From: Escherichia coli
GTDB lineage: Bacteria; Pseudomonadota; Gammaproteobacteria; Enterobacterales; Enterobacteriaceae
Strand: one strand, 5' to 3'
NCBI RefSeq assembly: GCF_016903815.1
Contig: NZ_CP069973.1
DNA length: 64,000 bases
In this document: piece by piece, positions 2,149 to 56,186 of the stretch
Numbering within the stretch: the stretch's first letter is position 1
Layout of the letters: each line of letters opens with the position of its first letter
Notes under the pieces: generated by a model
Database searches by the model: none
What the model saw: the letters and a program-made list of their open reading frames with translations, nothing else
Told to the model about the DNA's origin: nothing
Made by a program: the position numbers and the translations under genes

Positions 2149-3078
2149 TTACTCCCCTTCACCCGGAAACAGGAACGGGTTGATGGAACTACGAGCATAG
2201 CCTTCTTGCTCCATTCGCGCGTCCAGTACCAGAGAGGCGAGGTCATCTGCCACGGCTTCAACTTTCGGTTCTTTTTCCTGATAAAGAATCTTCAGGTAAG
2301 TGCCGCAGTCATCGCAGCTTTCGGCTTTAATCGCGGCCTGTTCGTCATCCAGCGACCAGTAATGCAGTTTGCCGCTCTGCTCGCAGTTGCTGCATTTTAC
2401 GCGCACTACGTGCCATTCGGTTTCACACAGGTTGCAGTGCAGGTAACGCAGACCCTGAGTGGTGCCAATTTGCACCATGCTGGACACCGGCATAGAGCCA
2501 CATACCGGGCAATATTGACGTTGTTCGCCGTATTCAGCGCGGGCTTTGCCGGGGATCAGATTAGCCATCTGCGCCCAGTAGAGCGACAGCGCAGCCCAGA
2601 TAAACGGCGCTTTATCGCTGCTGACGGACGAGAAATCAGAGGCAAACAGTGCGCTGGCCATATCTTCCAGCTCCTGAGTCGATGCCTTCTCCAGATTCTC
2701 AATCACTGCCAGCGCCGGGCCGCTCATTTCAGGTTTCAGCTCAGCAATCAGCGCCATCAGCAGCTTTTGCCAGTGCTTATCACGCGGCAGAACGTGAATA
2801 TCCAGCGGGGGCTTGCCCTGTGCGCTGGCTTCTTTAATGCGCGCGGTCAGATCCATCTCCAGCGGATGGTCGTACAGCACCACTTCCTGGGCGTGGGCGA
2901 TAAGCGCAGCAAAGCGCAGGTAATCACCCAGCGGATTATTTTCTGCCAGCTCGCGCAGACGCTCGGCGCGGCGGTTGTATAAATTCTTGAGCCGAGGGAA
3001 CAATAACGGCGGAATCATATCCGCCGTACGTTTCTCGCTCGAACCCAGCTCATCTTGCGGGATTATGCGAATACTCAT
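2149..3078 (-). CDS. fdhE: formate dehydrogenase accessory protein FdhE
   Basis: 309-aa ORF with paired CxxC motifs; recognised sequence; synteny with fdoGHI. Confidence 0.93.
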
Positions 3079-3710
3079 TCAGCTTTCTTTTCCGTTGTCT
3101 TGCGGACCTCACGGTACCAGCGCGGGTGATGTTTCTTCGCCCAGGCGCTGGTAACCCATCCTTCCACCATGGCGGTAATCGTGCCTTTCACCCAAAGGGC
3201 GGCGTAGATATGCACCATGATAACCACAATTAACGCCACTGCGGCAAATGAATGCAGCATTAACGCGAATCGGATCACCGGGATTGAGAAAGCAGGCGCA
3301 AAATAAGGACGCCAGATAATCACGCCGCTCACCAGCAGCAGAACCAGGAAAATAATCGCCGCCCAGAAAACGCATTTCTGACCGAAGTTATAACGCCCGG
3401 TGTCACCTACTTCCTCGTTGACGACGATCTTACGAATATTCTTCGCCCAAAAGATATCATCCCGATTGATTAGGTTGTGATGCCAGTAACGGAAAAACAT
3501 GATGATGAACGAGGCAAACATAACCACGCCGACAAACGGGTGCAGAATTCGCGCCAGCTGCGGTGTGCCCATGATTTGCATCAACCAGTTGAAGGACGGG
3601 AACAAAAAGCCCAGCCCGCTCACCGCCGCCAGGATGAAGCAGAAGGCGGTGATCCAGTGGTTGATACGTTCCGGCGCGGTGTAGCGCACGATGGTGTCAC
3701 GTCGTTTCAT
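3075..3710 (-). CDS. fdoI: formate dehydrogenase-O cytochrome b556 subunit
   Basis: 211-aa hydrophobic ORF overlapping fdoH stop; synteny. Confidence 0.93.
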
Positions 3711-4609
3711 TTGCGCTCCTCGTCTTTCTCTTCGTGCAGATTATTCTCTTCCTCATCCGCACGGTTCGGACCGACACCCACGTAGTGGAAGATACTGGCT
3801 GCGAAGGTAGCCGCAAAGCCAACAGCTGCGAGCGGTTTCCAGATGCCTTTCCAGAATTTCACGGTTTCGCTGATTTCCGGGTTCTCCGGCAAGCCATGAT
3901 ACAGATTTGGCTTGTCAGCATGGTGCAGCACGTACATAACGTGTGTACCACCAACGCCTGCCGGATCGTACAGACCCGCATTGTCGTAACCGCGAGTTTT
4001 CAGCTCCGCCACGCGCTCGCTCGCCAGCGTTTTCATCGACTCTTTCGTACCGAAGTGAATCGCGCCCGTTGGGCAGGTCTTCACGCAGGCCGGTTCTTGC
4101 CCAACCACCACGCGGTCAACGCACAGCGTACATTTGTAGACGCGGTTGTCTTCCGGGTTGAGGCGCGGAATGTCGAACGGACAGCCCGCAATGCAATAAC
4201 CGCAGCCGATGCACTGCTCGGACTGGAAGTCGACGATACCGTTGGCATACTGAATAATTGCTCCTTCCGCCGGGCACGCTTTCAGGCAGCCTGGATCGGA
4301 ACAGTGCATACAGCCGTCTTTGCGGATCAGCCATTCCAGTTTGTCGTTCTGTTCCACTTCCGAGAAGCGCATCACCGTCCACGATTTGGCACTTAAATCA
4401 TTGGGGTTGTCGTACACCCCAATGTTATTGCCGACGGTATCGCGAATGTCGTTCCACTCTGAACACGCCACCTGACAGGCTTTACAGCCGATACAGGTGG
4501 TGACGTCGATGAGTTTCGCCACTTCTTCCTGGAAGTCCCGCGCCTGAGGCGCGGGGGTCAGACCGTTAGTCGCGGAACGACGAATGATATCTTGAGATTG
4601 ATAAGCCAT
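3707..4609 (-). CDS. fdoH: formate dehydrogenase-O iron-sulfur subunit
   Basis: 300-aa ORF with multiple CxxCxxCxxxCP ferredoxin motifs. Confidence 0.94.
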
Positions 4610-4621
4610 ATGTCGTCTCCG

Positions 4622-7600
4622 TTACACCTTTTCCACATTCACAAGGAAGGACTTAAACTCTGGCGTCTGCGTGTTCGCATCACCAACGAATGGCGTTAAC
4701 GTATTGGCAATAAAGCCTTTTTTCGCAACACCTTCATAGCCCCAGTGAATCGGAATACCGATGGTATCGATATCTTTGCCGTTCGCTTTCAGCGTGCGAA
4801 TACGTTTGGTCACCACCGCTTTGGCTTTTATATAGCCACGGTTGGAGGAGACTTTCACTGTATCGCCCTGGGCAATGCCAAGTTTATTCGCCAGCGACTC
4901 ACCGATTTCCACAAACTGCTCTGGTTGCAAAATCGCGTTCAACAGCGCGTGTTTGGTCCAGTAGTGGAAGTGCTCGGTCAGACGATAGGTGGTTCCGACA
5001 TACGGGAACTTATCGGCTTTACCCAATGCTTCGGCGTCGTCTTTAAAGATACGTGCAGCCGGGTTCGAGATAACGTTTGGATGCAGCGGGTTAGTTCCCA
5101 GCGGCGTTTCAAACGGCTCGTAGTGTTCCGGGAACGGACCTTCCGCCATCTTATCGAGGGCAAACAGACGCCCCATGCCTTCCTGCTGCATGATAAACGG
5201 CCCAACGCCACTGCCCGGAGGCGCTGCGCTGTAGTCCGGAATATCCCAGCCGGTCCACTTAGTGCCGTCCCATTTCAGCAACTGACGCTTCGGATCCCAC
5301 GGGTTACCCTGCGGATCTGCGGAGGCGCGGTTATACAGAATGCGGCGGTTAAGCGGCCATGCCCATGCCCAGCCCAGCGTGTTACCGAGGCCAGACGGAT
5401 CGGCGTTATCACGACGCGCCATCTGGTTGCCCTCTGGCGTCCAGCTACCGGCGAAAATCCAGCAGCCACAGGAGGTGGTACCGTCATCGCGCAGTTGGGC
5501 GAACGAGCTAAGTTGTTGGCCTTTCTTGACGATAACCGCACCGGTTGCCGGATCGGTAATATCGGCCAGCGCCTTACCGTTGCTCTCCATCGCCACTTCT
5601 TCCGACTTCGGCTCATGCGGGATGGCGTAGTTCCAGGTCATGTTCAGCACCTGGTCCGGGTTCGCGCCACCCTGTTCGGCATACATCTTGCGCAAGCGCA
5701 GGAAGATACCGGAGAGGATCTCGCCGTCAGTCAGCGCAATCCCAGGGGCGTCCGCACCTTTCCAGTGCCACTGCAACCAGCGACCTGAGTTAACGATTGA
5801 ACCGTTCTCTTCCGCGAAGCAGGTCGATGGCAGACGGAACACTTCGGTCTGGATCTTCGACGAGTCAACTTCGTTCAGCTCACCGTGGTTCTGCCAGAAG
5901 TTAGAGGTTTCAGTGTTCAGCGGGTCGATGGTGACGAGGAACTTCAGTTTCGACAGACAACCGATCACTTTGTTTTTGTTCGGGAATGAGGCAACAGGGT
6001 TAAAACCCTGGCAGATATAGCCATTGACCTTGCCTTCTTTCATCATCTCGAAGTATTGCAGGACGTCGTAGCCTTTATCCCACTTCGGCAACCAGTCAAA
6101 GCCCCAGCTATTTTCCGCCGTCGCTTTATCACCAAAGAAGGCCTTCATCATAGAGACGAAGAATTTCGGGTAGTTGCCCCAGTAGTTTACCTGGCCTTCC
6201 AGCAGCGGTTTTGGCGTGTTGGCGGTAAGGTAGGTTTGCAGATCGGTCTGCTTCTCGCTTGGCAGCGTCATGTAACCCGGCAGGCTCTGCGACAGCAGCC
6301 CCAGGTCCGTCAGCCCCTGAATATTGGAGTGACCGCGCAGGGCGTTAACGCCGCCGCCGGCCATCCCCATATTGCCGAGCAGCAGCTGGATCATCGCCAT
6401 CGTACGAATGTTTTGCGCACCAACGGAGTGTTGCGTCCAGCCGAGGGCATACAGGAACGAGGCAGTTTTATCGTGTGCACTGGTTTCGGCGATGTATTCG
6501 CAGACTTTCAGGAACGCGTCTTTTGGCGTACCACAGATGTTTTCAACCACATCTGGCGTGTAGCGGGAAACGTGCTGTTTCAGCAAGTTCCACACGCAGC
6601 GCGGATGTTGCAGCGTGGTATCGCGTTTGGCGAAGCCGTTTTCGTCCAGTTCGTAAGTCCAGGAGGATTTATCGTACTTGCGTTTTTCCGCGTCGTAGCC
6701 GGTGAACAGGCCATCTTCAAAGCCGTAATCCTCACGCACGATAAGGCTAGCGTTGGTATAGGCTTCGGTATATTCGCGGTTGAATTTTTCATTGTTCAGC
6801 AGGTACAGCAATACGCCTGACAGGAAAGCAATGTCAGTACCGGAACGAATAGGGGCATAGTAGTCAGCCACCGCCGCCGTACGCGTAAAGCGAGGATCGA
6901 TCACAATCAGCTTCGCGCCGTTGTGAATTTTGGCTTCCATCGCCCAGCGGAACCCGACCGGGTGAGCTTCAGCGGCATTACCGCCCATCACCACGACGAG
7001 GTTGGCGTTCTTGATGTCGACCCAGTGGTTGGTCATCGCACCGCGACCAAATGTTGGAGCAAGACTTGCTACCGTTGGTCCGTGTCAGACACGCGCCTGG
7101 TTGTCGACCGCGAGCATCCCCAGCGCGCGGGAGAATTTTTGCGTTAAATAGCCGGTTTCGTTACTCGACGCGGAAGCACAAAGCATCCCGGTGGAGAGCC
7201 AGCGGTTAACAGTCACGCCTTCGGCGTTTTGCGCAATGTAGTTAGCATCGCGGTCTTCTTTCATCAGTTTGGCGATGCGATCAAACGCCTCTTCCCAACT
7301 GATTTGCTGCCATTTATCAGAACCTGGCGCACGGTATTCCGGAAACTTCAGACGGCTTTCGGAGTGGATGAAATCCACCAGGCCAGCGCCTTTCGGACAA
7401 AGTGCACCGCGGTTGACCGGGTGATCCGGATCGCCTTCGATATGGAAGATAGATGCTTTGGCGTTTTTTGCTCCGTCACCGAGGCTGTACATCAACAGCC
7501 CACAGCCTACGGAACAATAGGTGCAGGTATTACGGGTTTCGCGGGTGCGCAGCAGTTTATACTGCCGGGTTTCCGCGAGTGCTACGCTGGGTGCAAAACC

Positions 7601-7672
7601 CAGTGCCGCTGCCGTGGTGCCTGCCATACCGCCAGCGCAGATCTTAAAGAACTGCCTTCTGCTGACCTGCAT
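4622..7672 (-). CDS. fdoG: formate dehydrogenase-O catalytic subunit, selenoprotein; in-frame UGA (Sec) at 7085..7087
   Basis: Track ORFs 7085..7672 and 4622..7036 are in one frame separated only by TGA; Tat-like RRQFFK N-terminus; reading continues HGPTVASLAPTFGRGA-MTNHW after the UGA. Confidence 0.93.
7040..7084 (-). promoter_or_regulatory. candidate SECIS stem-loop directly 3' of the fdoG UGA
   Basis: mRNA after UGA contains GCAAG-U-CUUGC nested within GACCAA...UUGGUC. Confidence 0.5.
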
Positions 7673-7865: not shown

Positions 7866-8699
7866 GTGAAAAAAACACAGCAAAAAGAAATCGAAAATGT
7901 GACAAATGTCACAGGTGTTCGTCAAATTGAGTTATGGCGGCGTGATGATTTACAACACCCACGGTTAGATGAGGTCGCGGAAGAAGTTCCCGTTGCGCTG
8001 GTCTACAACGGCATTTCGCATGTGGTGATGATGGCGTCGCCCAAAGACCTTGAGTACTTTGCGCTCGGTTTTTCGCTTTCCGAGGGGATTATCGAAAGTC
8101 CGCGCGATATCTTCGGTATGGATGTCGTTCCTTCCTGTAATGGTCTGGAAGTGCAAATTGAGCTTTCCAGCCGCCGCTTTATGGGGTTGAAGGAGCGCCG
8201 CCGGGCGCTGGCGGGACGTACGGGCTGTGGCGTATGCGGTGTAGAACAGCTTAACGATATCGGTAAACCGGTGCAGCCGCTGCCGTTCACCCAGACGTTT
8301 GATCTCAACAAACTGGATGATGCATTACGTCATCTCAATGATTTCCAGCCAGTGGGGCAACTGACTGGTTGTACTCACGCCGCTGCATGGATGTTGCCAT
8401 CTGGCGAACTGGTCGGCGGGCATGAAGACGTGGGTCGCCATGTGGCGCTGGACAAACTGTTAGGCCGCCGGTCACAAGAAGGGGAAAGCTGGCAGCAAGG
8501 TGCGGTACTGGTTTCCAGCCGTGCCAGTTATGAAATGGTGCAAAAGTCGGCGATGTGCGGCGTAGAGATTTTGTTTGCGGTGTCTGCCGCGACCACGCTT
8601 GCTGTAGAAGTGGCTGAGCGCTGTAATCTGACACTGGTAGGTTTTTGTAAACCGGGTCGGGCAACGGTTTATACCCATCCGCAGCGTTTGAGCAATTAA
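7866..8699 (+). CDS. fdhD: formate dehydrogenase sulfurtransferase/accessory protein FdhD
   Basis: 277-aa ORF; recognised sequence; divergent from fdoG. Confidence 0.93.
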
Positions 8700-8748: not shown

Positions 8749-9429
8749 GTGAATTTTATTATTTTATTTATAAACAAAGCGCGTGTAGTGGCGTTAACGC
8801 CTGCGCTGCAACCTATTGATGGCGTGGCGGTAAGTTATATTGATACTGCCGTGGCGTTGGGTAATACCATTAACGAAATGGATAAATATTACACCCAGGA
8901 AAATTATAAAGACGATGCGTTTGCGAAAGGGAAAACGCTGCACCAGACATTCTTAAAAAATCTTGAAGCCTTTGAACCTGTAGCAGAATCTTATCATGCG
9001 GCGATTCAGGAAATTAACGATAAGCGCCAGCTTGCGGAACTGAAAAATATTGAACAAAGAGAAGGGAAAACATTCCACTACTACTCTCTGGCAGTCATGA
9101 TTTCAGCGAAACAAATTAATAACCTGATTTCGCAAGAGAAGTTTGATGTTGATGCGGCAATGAAGAAAGTCTCTGAACTGGAAACGCTGGTGGCGCAGGC
9201 CAAAGAAGCGGATAAAGGCGGTATGAATTTCTCGTTCATTAATTCGGCAGACCAGTATCAACTCGAGGCTAAAAAATATGTTCGCCGCGTCAGAGATAAA
9301 GTTCCGTACTCTGACTGGGATAAAGAGCAACTTCAGGATGCAAACACAAGCTGGATGGTCGACGACTCATTTCCGCGAGCGTTACGCGAGTACAACGAAA
9401 TGGTCGATGACTATAATAGCCTGCGTTAA
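8749..9429 (+). CDS. yiiG: YiiG-like protein (DUF3829 family as I recall); ORF looks 5'-truncated
   Basis: 226-aa ORF with GTG start, no SD, no signal peptide, begins 2 nt after the fdhD terminator; I recall K-12 YiiG as about 351 aa. Confidence 0.55.
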   Translation: MNFIILFINKARVVALTPALQPIDGVAVSYIDTAVALGNTINEMDKYYTQENYKDDAFAKGKTLHQTFLKNLEAFEPVAESYHAAIQEINDKRQLAELKNIEQREGKTFHYYSLAVMISAKQINNLISQEKFDVDAAMKKVSELETLVAQAKEADKGGMNFSFINSADQYQLEAKKYVRRVRDKVPYSDWDKEQLQDANTSWMVDDSFPRALREYNEMVDDYNSLR

Positions 9430-26120: not shown

Positions 26121-26220
26121 CCGGAGTGTAGGCCTGATAAGACGCTATCAGCGTCGCATCAGGCATCCTGCTCAAATGCCGGATGCGGCGTAAACGCCTT
26201 ATCCTGCCTACAAATGCGGA
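26121..26220. repeat. REP cluster between yiiM and cpxA
   Basis: GCCTGATAAGACGC...GCGTCGCATCAGGC and GCCGGATGCGGCGTAAACGCCTTATCC palindromic units. Confidence 0.75.
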
Positions 26221-31204: not shown

Positions 31205-31290
31205 CGCTTATCAGGCCTACATGAATTCTGCAATTTATTGAATTTGCAAACTTTTGTAGGCCGGATAAGGCGTTCGCGCCGCATCCGGCA
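31205..31290. repeat. REP elements between pfkA and sbp
   Basis: GCTTATCAGGCCTACA and TGTAGGCCGGATAAGGCGTTCGCGCCGCATCCGGCA units. Confidence 0.7.
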
Positions 31291-53000: not shown

Positions 53001-54178
53001 AACGGGTATGGCGGCGTGAACGGGACCTGACGGGCTGGATGTCGCTGTCATGGAAACCGGAAGTGCCCTGGTACGGCTGGGACGGCGACCGGCTGACCAC
53101 AATACAGAACGACAGAACCCGCATCCAGACGGTTTATCAGCCGGGGAGCTTCACGCCACTCATCAGAGTTGAAACTGCCACCGGTGAGCTGGCGAAAACG
53201 CAGCGCCGCAGCCTGGCGGATGCGCTTCAGCAGTCCGGCGGTGAAGACGGTGGCAGTGTGGTGTTCCCGCCGGTGCTGGTGCAGATGCTCGACCGGCTGG
53301 AAAGTGAAATCCTGGCTGACCGGGTGAGTGAGGAAAGCCGCCGCTGGCTGGCATCGTGCGGCCTGACGGTGGAGCAGATACAAAACCAGATGGACCCGGT
53401 GTACACGCCGGCGCGAAAAATCCACCTGTACCACTGCGACCATCGCGGCCTGCCGCTGGCGCTTGTCAGCACGGAAGGGGCAACAGAATGGTGCGCAGAA
53501 TACGATGAATGGGGCAACCTGCTGAATGAAGAGAACCCGCATCAGCTGCAGCAGCTCATCCGCCTGCCGGGTCAGCAGTATGATGAGGAGTCCGGCCTGT
53601 ATTACAACCGCCACCGCTATTATGACCCGCTGCAGGGGCGGTATATCACTCAGGATCCGATTGGGCTGAAGGGGGGATGGAATTTTTATCAGTATCCGTT
53701 GAATCCGATCTCAAATATAGATCCATTAGGATTATATGAATTTAAATCAAAAAATATAGATGATATTGGAATATTTGCATTGGCAATGTGTAATGGAGAA
53801 TCAATTAACGAGAATAAAGAATATGGTGGGCTAATATGTAAGAAGCAAGGTGAATATTTCCCCATGAATCCGATAAGTTCAAATGATAATGATAGTGTAG
53901 ACTTGCGAAATATAAAATGCCCTGAAGGTTCAGAGAGAGTAGGCGATTATCACACTCACGGTTTTTACTCTGACGATAAAGGCAATAAAGTAACAAAAGA
54001 AAATGATGTTTATGATAGTCTAAATTTTTCAAGCAAAGATTTAACGAATTCTTATATGAATGGAATGGGAAAAAAAGAATACAGTAGTTACTTGGGAACA
54101 CCAAATAACACCTATCTAAAATATAATCCCAAAGCTAAAGGGAATGGAGTTACAATTATCAGGCAAGGGAGTAATTAA
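50006..54178 (+). CDS. Rhs-family polymorphic toxin (1390 aa): RhsA-like N-terminus, YD-repeat core, AT-rich C-terminal toxin tip
   Basis: N-terminus [17 protein letters not shown]...; many YD/RYxYD repeats; core-end motif [27 protein letters not shown] near aa 1243; composition switch near 53690. Confidence 0.9.
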
Positions 54179-54179
54179 A

Positions 54180-54503
54180 ATGAAGGTAATACAATGTTGT
54201 TATTTCCTTGCTTTAGTCTCCAGTCATTTAATGGCTGGAGTTATGAGTGATGACAATATATTTTTAAGTAATTCGGATTTAGCTGCTTTATATTGTGTGG
54301 CTAAAATATTTCCAGATGGAGAAAATATTTTAATATATAAAGTAAATATAATTAATGCTAGTTCAAAAAAAGATGTATTTTTTTATGAAAGCCCAACATC
54401 AACCCACAATGACATAATGGGGGGCGGGGGAATGTCATATGCCTATGAATATGATGTAAAATATAATATATGTCATTTGAGAAAAAAGAGCAGAATGAGG
54501 TAA
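54180..54503 (+). CDS. putative cognate immunity protein (107 aa from MKVIQCCYFLALVSS...)
   Basis: ATG 1 nt after the rhs TAA (TAAaATG); GGGAG SD inside the rhs 3' end; same AT-rich composition as the toxin tip. Confidence 0.5.
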   Translation: MKVIQCCYFLALVSSHLMAGVMSDDNIFLSNSDLAALYCVAKIFPDGENILIYKVNIINASSKKDVFFYESPTSTHNDIMGGGGMSYAYEYDVKYNICHLRKKSRMR

Positions 54504-54759
54504 AAATCTTTGGCTGTGTATTCAGTCTGGTAATCATCCAAGGAAAGCTCATCAGAAGGGTGATGACTCCAATTAGTAGAACATATATTTTCGATAAAAG
54601 CACCGATGACTTTTTCATGAAGTTCTACAGAACGCGAGAAACAGATGGTTCTGCGGGCCAGACGTTTGATTCGGGTTCTCAGGGGCAGATTGTTACGCTC
54701 AATGGGTGATGCTGCCAACTTACTGATTTAGTGTATGATGGTGTTTTTGAGGTGCTCCA

Positions 54760-55035
54760 GTGGCTTCTGTTTCTATCAGCTGTCCCTCCTGTTCAGCTAC
54801 TGACGGGGTGGTGCGTAACGGCAAAAGCACCGCCGGACATCAGCGCTATCTCTGCTCTCACTGCCGTAAAACATGGCAACTGCAGTTCACTTACACCGCT
54901 TCTCAACCCGGTACGCACCAGAAAATCATTGATATGGCCATGAATGGCGTTGGATGCCGGGCAACCGCCCGCATTATGGGCGTTGGCCTCAACACGATTT
55001 TCCGCCATTTAAAAAACTCAGGCCGCAGTCGGTAA
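54760..55035 (+). CDS. insA: IS1 InsA
   Basis: 91-aa [25 protein letters not shown]... Confidence 0.92.
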
Positions 55036-55457
55036 CCTCGCGCATACAGCCGGGCAGTGACGTCATCGTCTGCGCGGAAATGGACGAACAGTGGGGATAC
55101 GTCGGGGCTAAATCGCGCCAGCGCTGGCTGTTTTACGCGTATGACAGGCTCCGGAAGACGGTTGTTGCGCACGTATTCGGTGAACGCACTATGGCGACGC
55201 TGGGGCGTCTTATGAGCCTGCTGTCACCCTTTGACGTGGTGATATGGATGACGGATGGCTGGCCGCTGTATGAATCCCGCCTGAAGGGAAAGCTGCACGT
55301 AATCAGCAAGCGATATACGCAGCGAATTGAGCGGCATAACCTGAATCTGAGGCAGCACCTGGCACGGCTGGGACGGAAGTCGCTGTCGTTCTCAAAATCG
55401 GTGGAGCTGCATGACAAAGTCATCGGGCATTATCTGAACATAAAACACTATCAATAA
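54954..55457 (+). CDS. insB: IS1 InsB reading frame (expressed as InsAB' by frameshift)
   Basis: 167-aa ORF overlapping insA in the -1 frame. Confidence 0.9.
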
Positions 55458-56186
55458 GTTGGAGTCATTACCCGCTCAATGTGCTGAGTAAAAATCTTAC
55501 CAGTCAGATGCTTCTCCTTTGGTAACTCTCTAGCGTAACTACCCCATTCGTCAGTGGTCAACATGCCGATGGTAAAAGGGTAAGCAGCGCCAGCAGTTCA
55601 CGACAGGTTTCATCAGTCCGGGGGCCAAAAGTGTAGGCCAGAACACCACCAGTTTTCGTGTTGTACACGTACCAGAGCCAGTGCTGTCGCGCTTTACTGC
55701 CGACAAAGCTCCATTGCTGACTAAGTTCGCAGATGAGTGCCACATCAGCATGAGCGACCGGGGATGACGTTATTTTTCGTGGCGAGAGTTTTTTAAAGTT
55801 CGGATGACTGTATTAATGCCAATTTTCAGCGTACGGGCAGTATAGCGAACCCCGGCACCGTTGAAAGCCATTTCAGCGATTTGGTCTTTAACTCCTGGTT
55901 TACGGGGCTCGTAACAGTAACTGAGCTGAAATACCCGGTGACAGTCACGGCCGCGGAATCGATCATGTCTTTTGGGGTTCTGCCCGTGACGGTAAACCTG
56001 AACGGACTGGCAACGGGGACAATGAAGGTTAACTGTGACCATGAAACAACCTTAAAAGCGAGTATTATATCCTTAATTCAACTAATTGGAGGCATCACCG
56101 TTTACCGGAGCGACAGCTTGCGGAAAGGTCGTGCAACTACAAAGCAACAAACAGACTACGGCGGGAATTATTTTTTTTATCATCCA

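Follow-up and report, generated by a model that had tools for sequence, protein, structure and literature searches.

The selenocysteine codon of fdoG in Escherichia coli and the SECIS element that follows it

The fdo locus and the split reading frame of fdoG

The window, a 64-kb stretch of the E. coli chromosome, carries the genes for formate dehydrogenase-O, with fdoG, fdoH, fdoI and fdhE on the minus strand and fdhD diverging from fdoG (Table 1). The assignment of the gamma subunit gene was specific: the fdoI product scored 243.6 bits with the FdnI model NF007558, under that model's cut-off of 339. The N-terminal stretch MQVSRRQFFK...ALA of FdoG we take to be a twin-arginine (Tat) signal, on the strength of the motif S/T-R-R-x-F-L-K. 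FdoG of the window and K-12 FdoG (b3894) are identical at 1015 of 1016 residues (99.9%), the single amino-acid difference lying away from the region discussed here, while identity to FdnG is 77%; the arrangement fdoGHI-fdhE with divergent fdhD is likewise shared with K-12. By this orthology to b3894 and by its neighbors fdoH-fdoI-fdhE and fdhD, the gene is fdoG and not fdnG, although PGAP uses the name 'fdnG' for it in strains matching the window. The product of fdhD is described as a sulfurtransferase required for maturation of the molybdenum cofactor (PMC6239281).

Table 1. Coordinates of genes, codons and RNA features at the fdo locus, numbered from the first nucleotide of the window
Feature	Position	Strand	Basis or remark
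fdhE, formate dehydrogenase accessory protein	2149..3078	minus	NF002925, 604 bits
fdoI, cytochrome b556 gamma subunit	3075..3710	minus	NF007924, 453 bits, above cut-off
fdoH, iron-sulfur beta subunit	3707..4609	minus	TIGR01582, 478.7 bits; RefSeq annotation
fdoG CDS, catalytic alpha subunit of formate dehydrogenase-O	4622..7672	minus	1016 codons + stop; UGA = Sec at codon 196
Frozen synonymous block, codons 195-217	7022..7090	minus	includes SECIS, extends about 20 nt past its 3' end
SECIS, Rfam RF01989 (SECIS_3) limits, GUC-UGA to AUGAC	7032..7090	minus	covariance model, full model 1-59
Lower stem, 3' strand UUGGUCGCG	7042..7050	minus	predicted fold; alignment A1
Upper stem-loop, putative SelB-binding minimal SECIS	7056..7073	minus	GG / bulged U (7071) / AGCAA / loop GUC (7065..7063) / UUGCU / CC
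Lower stem, 5' strand CGGACCAA	7075..7082	minus	predicted fold
UGA Sec codon (codon 196)	7085..7087	minus	next base C (UGAC)
Presumed Tat signal peptide of FdoG, N-terminal (MQVSRRQFFK...ALA)	7574..7672	minus	from translation
fdhD, sulfurtransferase for Mo cofactor maturation, divergent from fdoG	7866..8699	plus	TIGR00129, 340 bits

A mechanical ORF call splits fdoG into two pieces on one strand and in one frame, 7085..7672 (195 aa plus the TGA stop) and 4622..7036 (804 aa), the second of which starts at the first ATG, codon 213. The sequence-only reading had joined these pieces across the TGA as one selenoprotein, and translation of 7672..4622 agrees with it throughout: there is no frameshift between the pieces, the TGA of codon 196 is the sole internal stop in the frame of 1016 codons, and the protein continues beyond it exactly as had been written, ...DNQARV*HGPTVASLAPTFGRGAMTNHW.... 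The N-terminal piece matches positions 1-194 of the TIGR01553 profile (271 bits) and the C-terminal piece positions 196-1009 (1278 bits for this piece alone, against a cut-off of 814), so that the TGA falls on profile position 195, in the U-H-x-P motif. Codons 196-199 read U-H-G-P and fit this motif, which marks the Sec-type formate dehydrogenase family (PMC13188914). When the query protein, with C put at residue 196, was aligned to chain A of PDB 1kqf (E. coli Fdh-N), codon 196 fell on the non-standard residue X196.

The TGA might instead be a nonsense mutation in a pseudogene, with the hairpin beside it incidental. That is how the mechanical ORF call would have it, and the hairpin is of ordinary stability (see below); moreover the two products, of exactly 195 and 804 aa, have been entered thousands of times in public protein collections, with at least 1000 contigs for each, and many deposited annotations still cut fdoG in two, sometimes under wrong names. 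Against this, the TGA was retained in all 80 Enterobacterales loci fetched from species-level genomes; of 16 more distant homologs, 13 retain it and three have TGT or TGC (Cys); it lies within a block common to 5425 of 5426 E. coli genomes; and downstream of it 820 codons remain intact, with a match to the family profile over their full length. RefSeq/PGAP, for its part, gives a single intact CDS of 3051 nt and no pseudogene, and the homologous site of the Fdh-N structure holds a non-standard residue. We therefore find a pseudogene scarcely conceivable. The expectation in the sequence-only reading that automated annotation would call one fails for RefSeq/PGAP and holds for the simpler gene callers that deposit the two fragments.

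Genes for selenocysteine insertion, which that reading had proposed to look for elsewhere in the genome, are nearly universal in the species: of 5426 complete E. coli genomes, 5425 have selAB and 5424 have selC. In strain 7/2, which does not differ from the window at this locus, selA and selB are intact and a tRNA-Sec is annotated; selD was seen in K-12 only, and the 64-kb window itself contains no tRNA genes. All three E. coli formate dehydrogenases have a Sec ligand (PMC6239281).

Structure of the hairpin downstream of the UGA

The SECIS_3 covariance model gave 84.3 bits (E = 1.4e-18) for the 59 nt from 7090 to 7032, against a gathering score of 63. In the predicted fold, GACCAA (7080..7075) pairs with UUGGUC (7050..7045) in the lower stem, and the upper stem consists of A21-U33, G22-C32, C23-G31 (pair probability 0.999), A24-U30 and A25-U29, closing on a GUC loop. 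The sequence-only reading had named both halves of the lower stem and a GCAAG/CUUGC palindrome, which is present at 7069..7059; the one-base loop that it drew, GCAAG-U-CUUGC, is impossible, and the loop is GUC. It was right to place the hairpin where a SECIS is expected, as the model score and a direct comparison with K-12 fdhF indicate, the upper stem-loop starting in both cases 11 nt past the UGA. The lower stem in Enterobacterales is one base off the register of the Rfam consensus. We rejected the Rfam register for this stem, where it is poor, with two non-canonical positions and -7.2 kcal/mol vs. -13.8 kcal/mol in the shifted register; across alignment A1 the lower helix in the Rfam register is 84% paired.

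The published bSECIS model (PMC13188914) describes an apical loop of 3-9 nt with G at its first or second position, an upper stem of 4-16 bp, a distance of 16-37 nt from UGA to apical loop and an MFE of at most -7.5 kcal/mol. The fdoG hairpin (7082..7042) lies directly downstream of the in-frame UGA (7087..7085), with one coding frame before and after it, and has a 3-nt GUC loop with G first, an upper stem of 7 bp (5 + 2, with the bulged U between), 19 nt between UGA and loop, and an energy of -13.8 kcal/mol, the MFE of the 51-mer being -14.6 kcal/mol.

Two characterized E. coli elements allow direct comparison, and for both the likeness that the sequence-only reading had proposed to check is close. 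The fdnG SECIS (RF01989 SECIS_3) is nucleotide-identical over 71 nt, including the UGA and the whole hairpin, and scores the same 84.3 bits, although fdnG belongs to another operon, the nitrate-induced fdnGHI. K-12 fdoG (b3894) is likewise identical over the 63 nt from GUC-UGA onward. The fdhF SECIS (RF01988 SECIS_2), which is the best-studied SelB target (PMC8659212, PMC11431864), shares with the window GUC-UGA-CAC-GG, the 11-nt spacer, the GG with bulged U, a short stem and a loop containing G-U-C. It differs in the size of its upper stem-loop, 17 nt (UGCA/UGCA, loop GGUC) vs. 18 nt in the window (AGCAA/UUGCU, loop GUC), and each element scores poorly on the other's model (28 bits for the window element on SECIS_2, 35.8 bits for fdhF on SECIS_3); the FdhF protein is only 30% identical to that of the window. 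Judged by the Rfam SECIS_3 match and by nucleotide identity to the K-12 fdnG element, the hairpin 3' of the fdoG UGA is a SECIS. Decoding of UGA as Sec was shown to require the fdnG stem-loop (Berg, Baron and Stewart 1991, according to the references of PMC13188914), and a 17-nt upper stem-loop constitutes the minimal SECIS that binds SelB (PMC11431864). From the identity with fdnG and from these sources (PMC13188914, PMC11431864) we infer that the window element would likewise bind SelB and direct Sec insertion.

Folding energy contributed little. Compared with dinucleotide shuffles the hairpin was unremarkable (z = -0.56 for 61 nt, -0.77 for 84 nt), and among synonymous recodings 7-14% were equally stable in the same register when sampled by the codon usage of fdoG, and 0.7-4% with uniform codon choice. 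Since the energy tests do not discriminate, we turn to the score of the covariance model, to conservation and to covariation; by folding energy alone, this SECIS would have escaped detection.

Conservation, covariation and absence from Cys-type homologs

From GUC-UGA onward, 68 of the 80 Enterobacterales species have one and the same 63-mer, from Escherichia to Proteus, Yersinia, Serratia and Edwardsiella. Third-position entropy over 79 Enterobacterales loci was 0.06 bit in codons 197-212 vs. 1.03 elsewhere (Mann-Whitney p = 2e-10), with each codon ranked against columns of the same amino acid. The longest identical run between fdoG and fdnG, genes that are just 74.7% identical overall, comprises 71 nt from codon 195 and takes in 23 identical codons, a length matched in none of 20,000 shuffles. 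The frozen block, mentioned above as common to 5425 of 5426 E. coli genomes, mostly occurs there in two copies.

Identity of fdoG and fdnG over this block of 69-71 nt within one genome is also what recent gene conversion between them, or horizontal spread, would leave behind, with no selection on an RNA element. Yet the 63-mer is held in common by those 68 species while the synonymous sites flanking it are near saturation, and conversion within a genome cannot account for invariance between genera; we consider such an origin of the block very improbable.

Inside the Enterobacterales the element is invariant, and no covariation is possible there. Covariation was therefore sought among homologs carried on plasmids and chromids of alpha-, beta- and gamma-proteobacteria, about 12 distant sequences that are mutually related. 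In alignment A1, 99.2% of upper-helix cells are paired, vs. 28-51% for controls in which the partner was slid by 1-3 columns, and compensatory changes occur at three pairs (21-33, 22-32 and 24-30) in alpha- and beta-proteobacterial Sec-type homologs. Twelve of 13 Sec-type homologs score 78-85 bits on SECIS_3; the divergent Sec-type locus of Indioceanicola (46% identical) scores 42.8 bits. Cys-type FdnG/FdoG homologs (Escherichia IncF plasmid NZ_AP025755.1, Azospirillum, Paracoccus) belong to the same family and have the near-identical local peptide C-HGPTVAALAPTFGRGAMTN, with TGT or TGC in place of TGA. The three Cys-codon homologs keep 4-5 of the 7 upper pairs (-0.8 to +7.9 kcal/mol) and score 35-45 bits.

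These data bear on a further possibility, that the hairpin only reflects the coding of the conserved peptide HGPTVASLAPTFGRG and does nothing as RNA, with read-through of the UGA independent of any SECIS. The recodings with the gene's own codon usage speak for it, as 7-14% of them fold equally well in the same register, and so does the residual Rfam score of the Cys-type homologs, part of that score coming from coding homology. However, the Cys-type homologs encode nearly the same peptide, HGPTVAALAPTFGRG, without the SECIS helix and below the Rfam threshold; the synonymous freeze is limited to this block; and the amino-acid change VASLA to VSSLG in alpha-proteobacteria preserves the helix pairs. 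We regard a mere coding by-product as extremely improbable.

A scan of metagenomes for non-enteric variants, with the pattern GTNTGACAYGGNCCNNNNGGTBGCNNGTC, returned one contig only. This contig, L088, scores 64.4 bits on SECIS_3 but is of limited value, as its coding frame contains indels.

The conserved 3' extension, decoding of the UGA and significance

In Enterobacterales the frozen block reaches codon 216/217 (position 7022), about 20 nt beyond the lower stem. The 7-mer GACCAAC occurs as a direct repeat on either side of UUGGUC (7050..7045), at 7080..7074 and 7034..7028, which gives the lower stem's 3' strand two possible partners: upstream, as the SECIS lower stem, or downstream, in a 9-bp hairpin. 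The two pairings are predicted to be almost equally stable (-13.8 vs. -14.2 kcal/mol), their pair probabilities being about 0.6 vs. 0.3-0.4. The constrained RNA may be longer than the SECIS hairpin, and the freed 3' strand might snap to the downstream repeat as the ribosome melts the lower stem. We consider such an enteric-specific refolding device unlikely; if it were real, its effect would be to hold the SelB-binding upper stem-loop apart or to set the pace of the ribosome. A more modest alternative is that GUC (codon 195) and GAC (codons 213-214), both invariant, close an extended helix around the UGA, in which case codon bias may explain the remaining two or three codons. As a general feature of the element the UUGGUC/GACCAA 3' hairpin was rejected, alpha- and beta-proteobacterial Sec-type sequences having UUGGCC with GACGAA or GACCAA.

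We are as good as certain that the TGA at 7087..7085 is the Sec196 codon of fdoG, as the sequence-only reading had proposed, and that the sequence just downstream is a bacterial SECIS. For SelB binding, ribosomal timing and molybdenum ligation we draw on the literature, by which decoding would proceed as follows. In the E. coli Sec pathway SelD produces selenophosphate, and SelA converts Ser-tRNA(Sec), whose tRNA is encoded by selC, to Sec-tRNA(Sec), which is bound by SelB-GTP; the C-terminal winged-helix domains of SelB would grip the apex of the hairpin at the bulged U and the loop G-U. The arriving ribosome would melt the lower stem and, with the UGA in its A site, leave the upper stem-loop still folded 11 nt downstream, where the tethered SelB could hand over Sec-tRNA(Sec) in competition with RF2; the C after the UGA (UGAC) makes for a weak termination context. 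The selenol so inserted would coordinate, as protein ligand, the molybdenum of the bis-MGD cofactor in FdoGHI, an enzyme expected to be Tat-exported and membrane-bound and to oxidize formate.

Sec196 of FdoG and its SECIS have been known for decades, being textbook material, curated in Rfam and correct in RefSeq, and their confirmation here changes nothing as a finding. The case serves rather as a positive control, in which a recoded stop and its RNA signal were recognizable from raw sequence. The comparative data further illustrate that an RNA signal can freeze coding sequence wholly, to the point of an unchanged 63-mer in 68 of 80 Enterobacterales species.

Reading frame and identity of fdoG

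Translated as a single frame, minus-strand 7672..4622 contains one internal stop, a TGA at 7087..7085, in the context ...LAVDNQARV*HGPTVASLAPTFGRGAMTNHWVDIK.... The ORF list breaks this frame into 7085..7672 (195 aa, closed by the TGA) and 4622..7036 (804 aa, starting at the first ATG past the TGA); since that ATG (7036) is in frame with the upstream piece, at codon 213, there is no frameshift. The sequence-only reading, which had called the TGA a selenocysteine (Sec) codon of fdoG, was right in its coordinates, its peptide and the continuity of the frame. The formate dehydrogenase alpha profile TIGR01553 (NCBIfam) aligns by its positions 1-194 before the TGA and 196-1009 after it, placing the TGA at exactly profile position 195. 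Codon 196 aligns to a non-standard residue, written X, in chain A of the solved structure of Fdh-N (PDB 1kqf), and for all three E. coli formate dehydrogenases ligation of the bis-MGD molybdenum through selenocysteine has been described (PMC6239281). The product begins with a twin-arginine signal (SRRQFFK) and is identical to K-12 FdoG (b3894) at 1015 of 1016 positions, vs. 77% identity to FdnG and 30% to FdhF.

The reading had also warned that automated annotation would call a pseudogene. This does not hold for PGAP, RefSeq carrying one intact 3051-nt CDS at fdoG, but it does elsewhere, where split fragments are widely deposited: in a public protein collection the exact fragments (195-aa window:7088-7672:- and 804-aa window:4625-7036:-) each occur on at least 1000 contigs, in clusters of 3382 and 6687 members, and in Cronobacter and Hafnia the N-terminal fragment sometimes carries the name 'sulfate ABC transporter substrate-binding protein'. 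PGAP names the gene 'fdnG / formate dehydrogenase-N subunit alpha' (NZ_CP023820.1, NZ_CP032261.1) despite its partners fdoH and fdoI; the 'fdnG' label is a peculiarity of naming that comes systematically with the TIGR01553 equivalog.

The window is chromosomal E. coli DNA. Several complete genomes, those of strains 7/2 and AR_0067 among them, match its first 25 kb and a 3.6-kb segment spanning the site at 100% identity, and of 5426 complete E. coli genomes 5425 have the site. In its first 54.7 kb the window has 14 mismatches with AR_0067, all past 50065, in the region (50065-54704) to which the RHS core gene of AR_0067 and the ORF downstream of it map. Beyond it lies a 768-bp IS1 (54705-55472, plus strand) with intact insA- and insB-sized ORFs, flanked by a 9-bp target-site duplication, CGCTCAATG, at 54696-54704 and 55473-55481, and nested in an older, frameshifted IS1H-like transposase pseudogene; because AR_0067 lacks this IS1 and is otherwise colinear, it looks like a recent strain-specific insertion. 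Between fdhD and frvR, yiiG (8788-9429, plus strand) is truncated in the lineage and is described as 'incomplete, missing N-terminus' in window-identical strains.

Features of the window around fdoG and other Rfam matches
Feature	Coordinates	Strand	Basis or remark
fdoG CDS	4622..7672	minus	one frame, 1016 codons, TGA at codon 196
fdoH	3707..4609	minus	downstream of fdoG, profile match
fdoI	3075..3710	minus	FDH-O cytochrome b556 model above cut-off; FdnI model under its cut-off
fdhE	2149..3078	minus	downstream of fdoG, profile match
fdhD	7866..8699	plus	divergent from fdoG, profile match
Upper stem-loop (RNA positions 18-35)	7073..7056	minus	SECIS_3 structure
Frozen synonymous sites past SECIS	7022-7041	minus	fdoG codons 211-217
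naRNA4 (REP-derived)	26131-26208	minus	Rfam above threshold
ES036	31213-31254	minus	Rfam above threshold
ClpQY (hslVU) promoter element	44906-44963	minus	Rfam above threshold
L31 (rpmE) ribosomal-protein leader	49575-49627	plus	Rfam above threshold

Structure of the SECIS hairpin

The Rfam model SECIS_3 (RF01989) matches at full length over 7090..7032 with 84.3 bits (E = 1.4e-18; gathering score 63); with SECIS_2, the model for fdhF-type elements, the score is only 28 bits. With RNA position 1 at the first base of GUC-UGA (window 7090; UGA at 4-6), an 11-nt spacer (positions 7-17) separates the UGA from the upper stem-loop, described as the minimal SelB-binding SECIS (PMC11431864). Its base is formed by G18-C35 and G19-C34, followed by a bulged U20, and its top by A21-U33, G22-C32, C23-G31, A24-U30 and A25-U29, enclosing the loop G26-U27-C28. 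The K-12 fdhF element likewise has an 11-nt spacer and the arrangement of GG, bulged U, short stem and G-U-C loop. The outer helix GACCAA...UUGGUC proposed from sequence was correct; the proposed inner hairpin GCAAG-U-CUUGC would require an impossible one-base closure, and G26 and C28 remain in the loop. For the lower stem a register one base off the Rfam consensus was better (-13.8 vs. -7.2 kcal/mol), with pairs C14-G43, C13-G44, A12-U45, G11-C46, a bulged G47, G10-C48 and C9-G49. The element falls within all published bSECIS criteria (PMC13188914), with an upper stem of 7 bp (4-16 bp required), 19 nt from UGA to loop (16-37 nt) and an energy of -13.8 kcal/mol (-7.5 kcal/mol or lower).

Judged by its sequence, the element is nucleotide for nucleotide the Sec196/SECIS of K-12 fdoG, already known, and the K-12 fdnG SECIS is identical to it. 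By the title of work by Berg, Baron and Stewart in 1991, cited in PMC13188914, the fdnG stem-loop is reportedly essential to decode UGA as Sec. A statement in PMC10945757 is at odds with the finding that fdoG and fdnG both match SECIS_3 above threshold.

Constraint on the element

Folding energy at the element is unremarkable (z-score -0.56), energy statistics being uninformative here. Random synonymous recodings folded as well in the same register in 7% of cases for the whole hairpin and 14% for the upper stem under the gene's own codon usage, and in 0.7% and 4% under uniform codon choice; evidently the peptide has co-evolved with the stem. Four independent lines, from paralogs, species, covariation and negative controls, show constraint on the element. 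Between fdoG and fdnG (74.7% nucleotide identity), codons for the same amino acid are identical in only 57% of cases, and the longest identical run is 71 nt from codon 195, i.e., 23 successive identical codons, vs. a maximum of 21 in 20,000 shuffles. Of roughly 600 hits in species-level genomes the best 80 were compared (Escherichia through Proteus, Photorhabdus, Yersinia, Serratia, Edwardsiella and Pantoea); all 80 keep the TGA, 68 share an identical 63-mer, and third-position entropy was 0.06 bit over codons 197-212 vs. 1.03 bit for amino-acid-invariant columns elsewhere (Mann-Whitney p = 2e-10). Across 18 Sec-type (TGA) sequences, some of them from alpha- and beta-proteobacteria, pairing in the upper helix reaches 99.2%, with changes on both sides at pairs 21-33 (G-C or A-U), 22-32 (G-C, U-G or C-G) and 24-30 (A-U, C-G or G-C); with the partner offset by 1-3 columns, only 28-51% pairing was left. 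In Rhizobiales, Paracoccus and Roseomonas the peptide itself is altered (VASLA to VSSLG), which keeps the upper-helix pairs. A metagenome pattern scan yielded a single noisy contig.

Helix and TGA co-occur. In three Cys-type homologs (TGT/TGC) with near-identical peptides, from an Escherichia IncF plasmid, Azospirillum and a second Paracoccus alcaliphilus copy, only 4-5 of the 7 upper pairs form, and energies lie between -0.8 and +7.9 kcal/mol. Their SECIS_3 scores are 35-45 bits, vs. 78-85 bits for 12 of 13 Sec-type homologs (the thirteenth, a divergent Indioceanicola locus at 46% identity, scores 42.8 bits, within the Cys-type range), and so about 40 of the 84 bits reflect the SECIS itself and not coding homology. 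A third FdnG-like alpha subunit (65% identity) is encoded on Escherichia IncF plasmids (NZ_AP025755.1 168052-169332; NZ_CP012500.1); in it Cys (TGT) replaces Sec, the SECIS helix is lacking, and this paralog, carried by a conjugative plasmid, is predicted to be selenium-independent.

Synonymous sites are frozen over a block that spans codons 195 to 216/217 (7090..7022, minus strand) and so extends some 20 nt 3' of the hairpin. At each degenerate codon of the block, codon entropy is below that of the invariant columns for the same amino acid elsewhere, with at most one column as an exception. RNAalifold paired codon 195 (GUC, invariant) with the GAC of codons 213-214, which might extend the helix around the UGA. 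In Enterobacterales a 7-nt direct repeat, GACCAAC (7080-7074 and 7034-7028), flanks UUGGUC (7050-7045), allowing an alternative 3' hairpin nearly isoenergetic with the lower stem; the alpha- and beta-proteobacterial elements compared do not keep it, and we think it unlikely that it serves a functional refolding role.

Selenocysteine machinery and decoding

The window holds no tRNA genes, and the K-12 sel genes map outside the equivalent region. Of 5426 complete E. coli genomes, 5425 contain a full-length match to K-12 selAB and 5424 one to selC. Strain 7/2, 100% identical to the window at the fdoG locus, has intact selB and selA at 4058567-4061799 and an annotated tRNA-Sec at 4138356-4138450. 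With one frame and the machinery present, neither of the two findings named beforehand as counting against a Sec codon, a frameshift or missing machinery, was made. In strain 7/2 tRNA-Sec (selC) is followed by an integrase-bearing islet of about 10 kb (NZ_CP023820.1 4138356-4148254) encoding the integrase, a TPR protein, a LacI regulator, an MFS transporter, a GH31 hydrolase and ykgR, and ending in IS1 and a setC remnant.

Following the established E. coli pathway (PMC8124441, PMC11431864, PMC13188914), the apical stem-loop would be bound by SelB-GTP-Sec-tRNA(Sec) and the lower stem melted by the ribosome, bringing the UGA, which lies 11 nt before the bound hairpin, into the A site, where Sec insertion would compete with RF2. 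The selenol would then ligate Mo in the periplasmic, Tat-exported FdoGHI.
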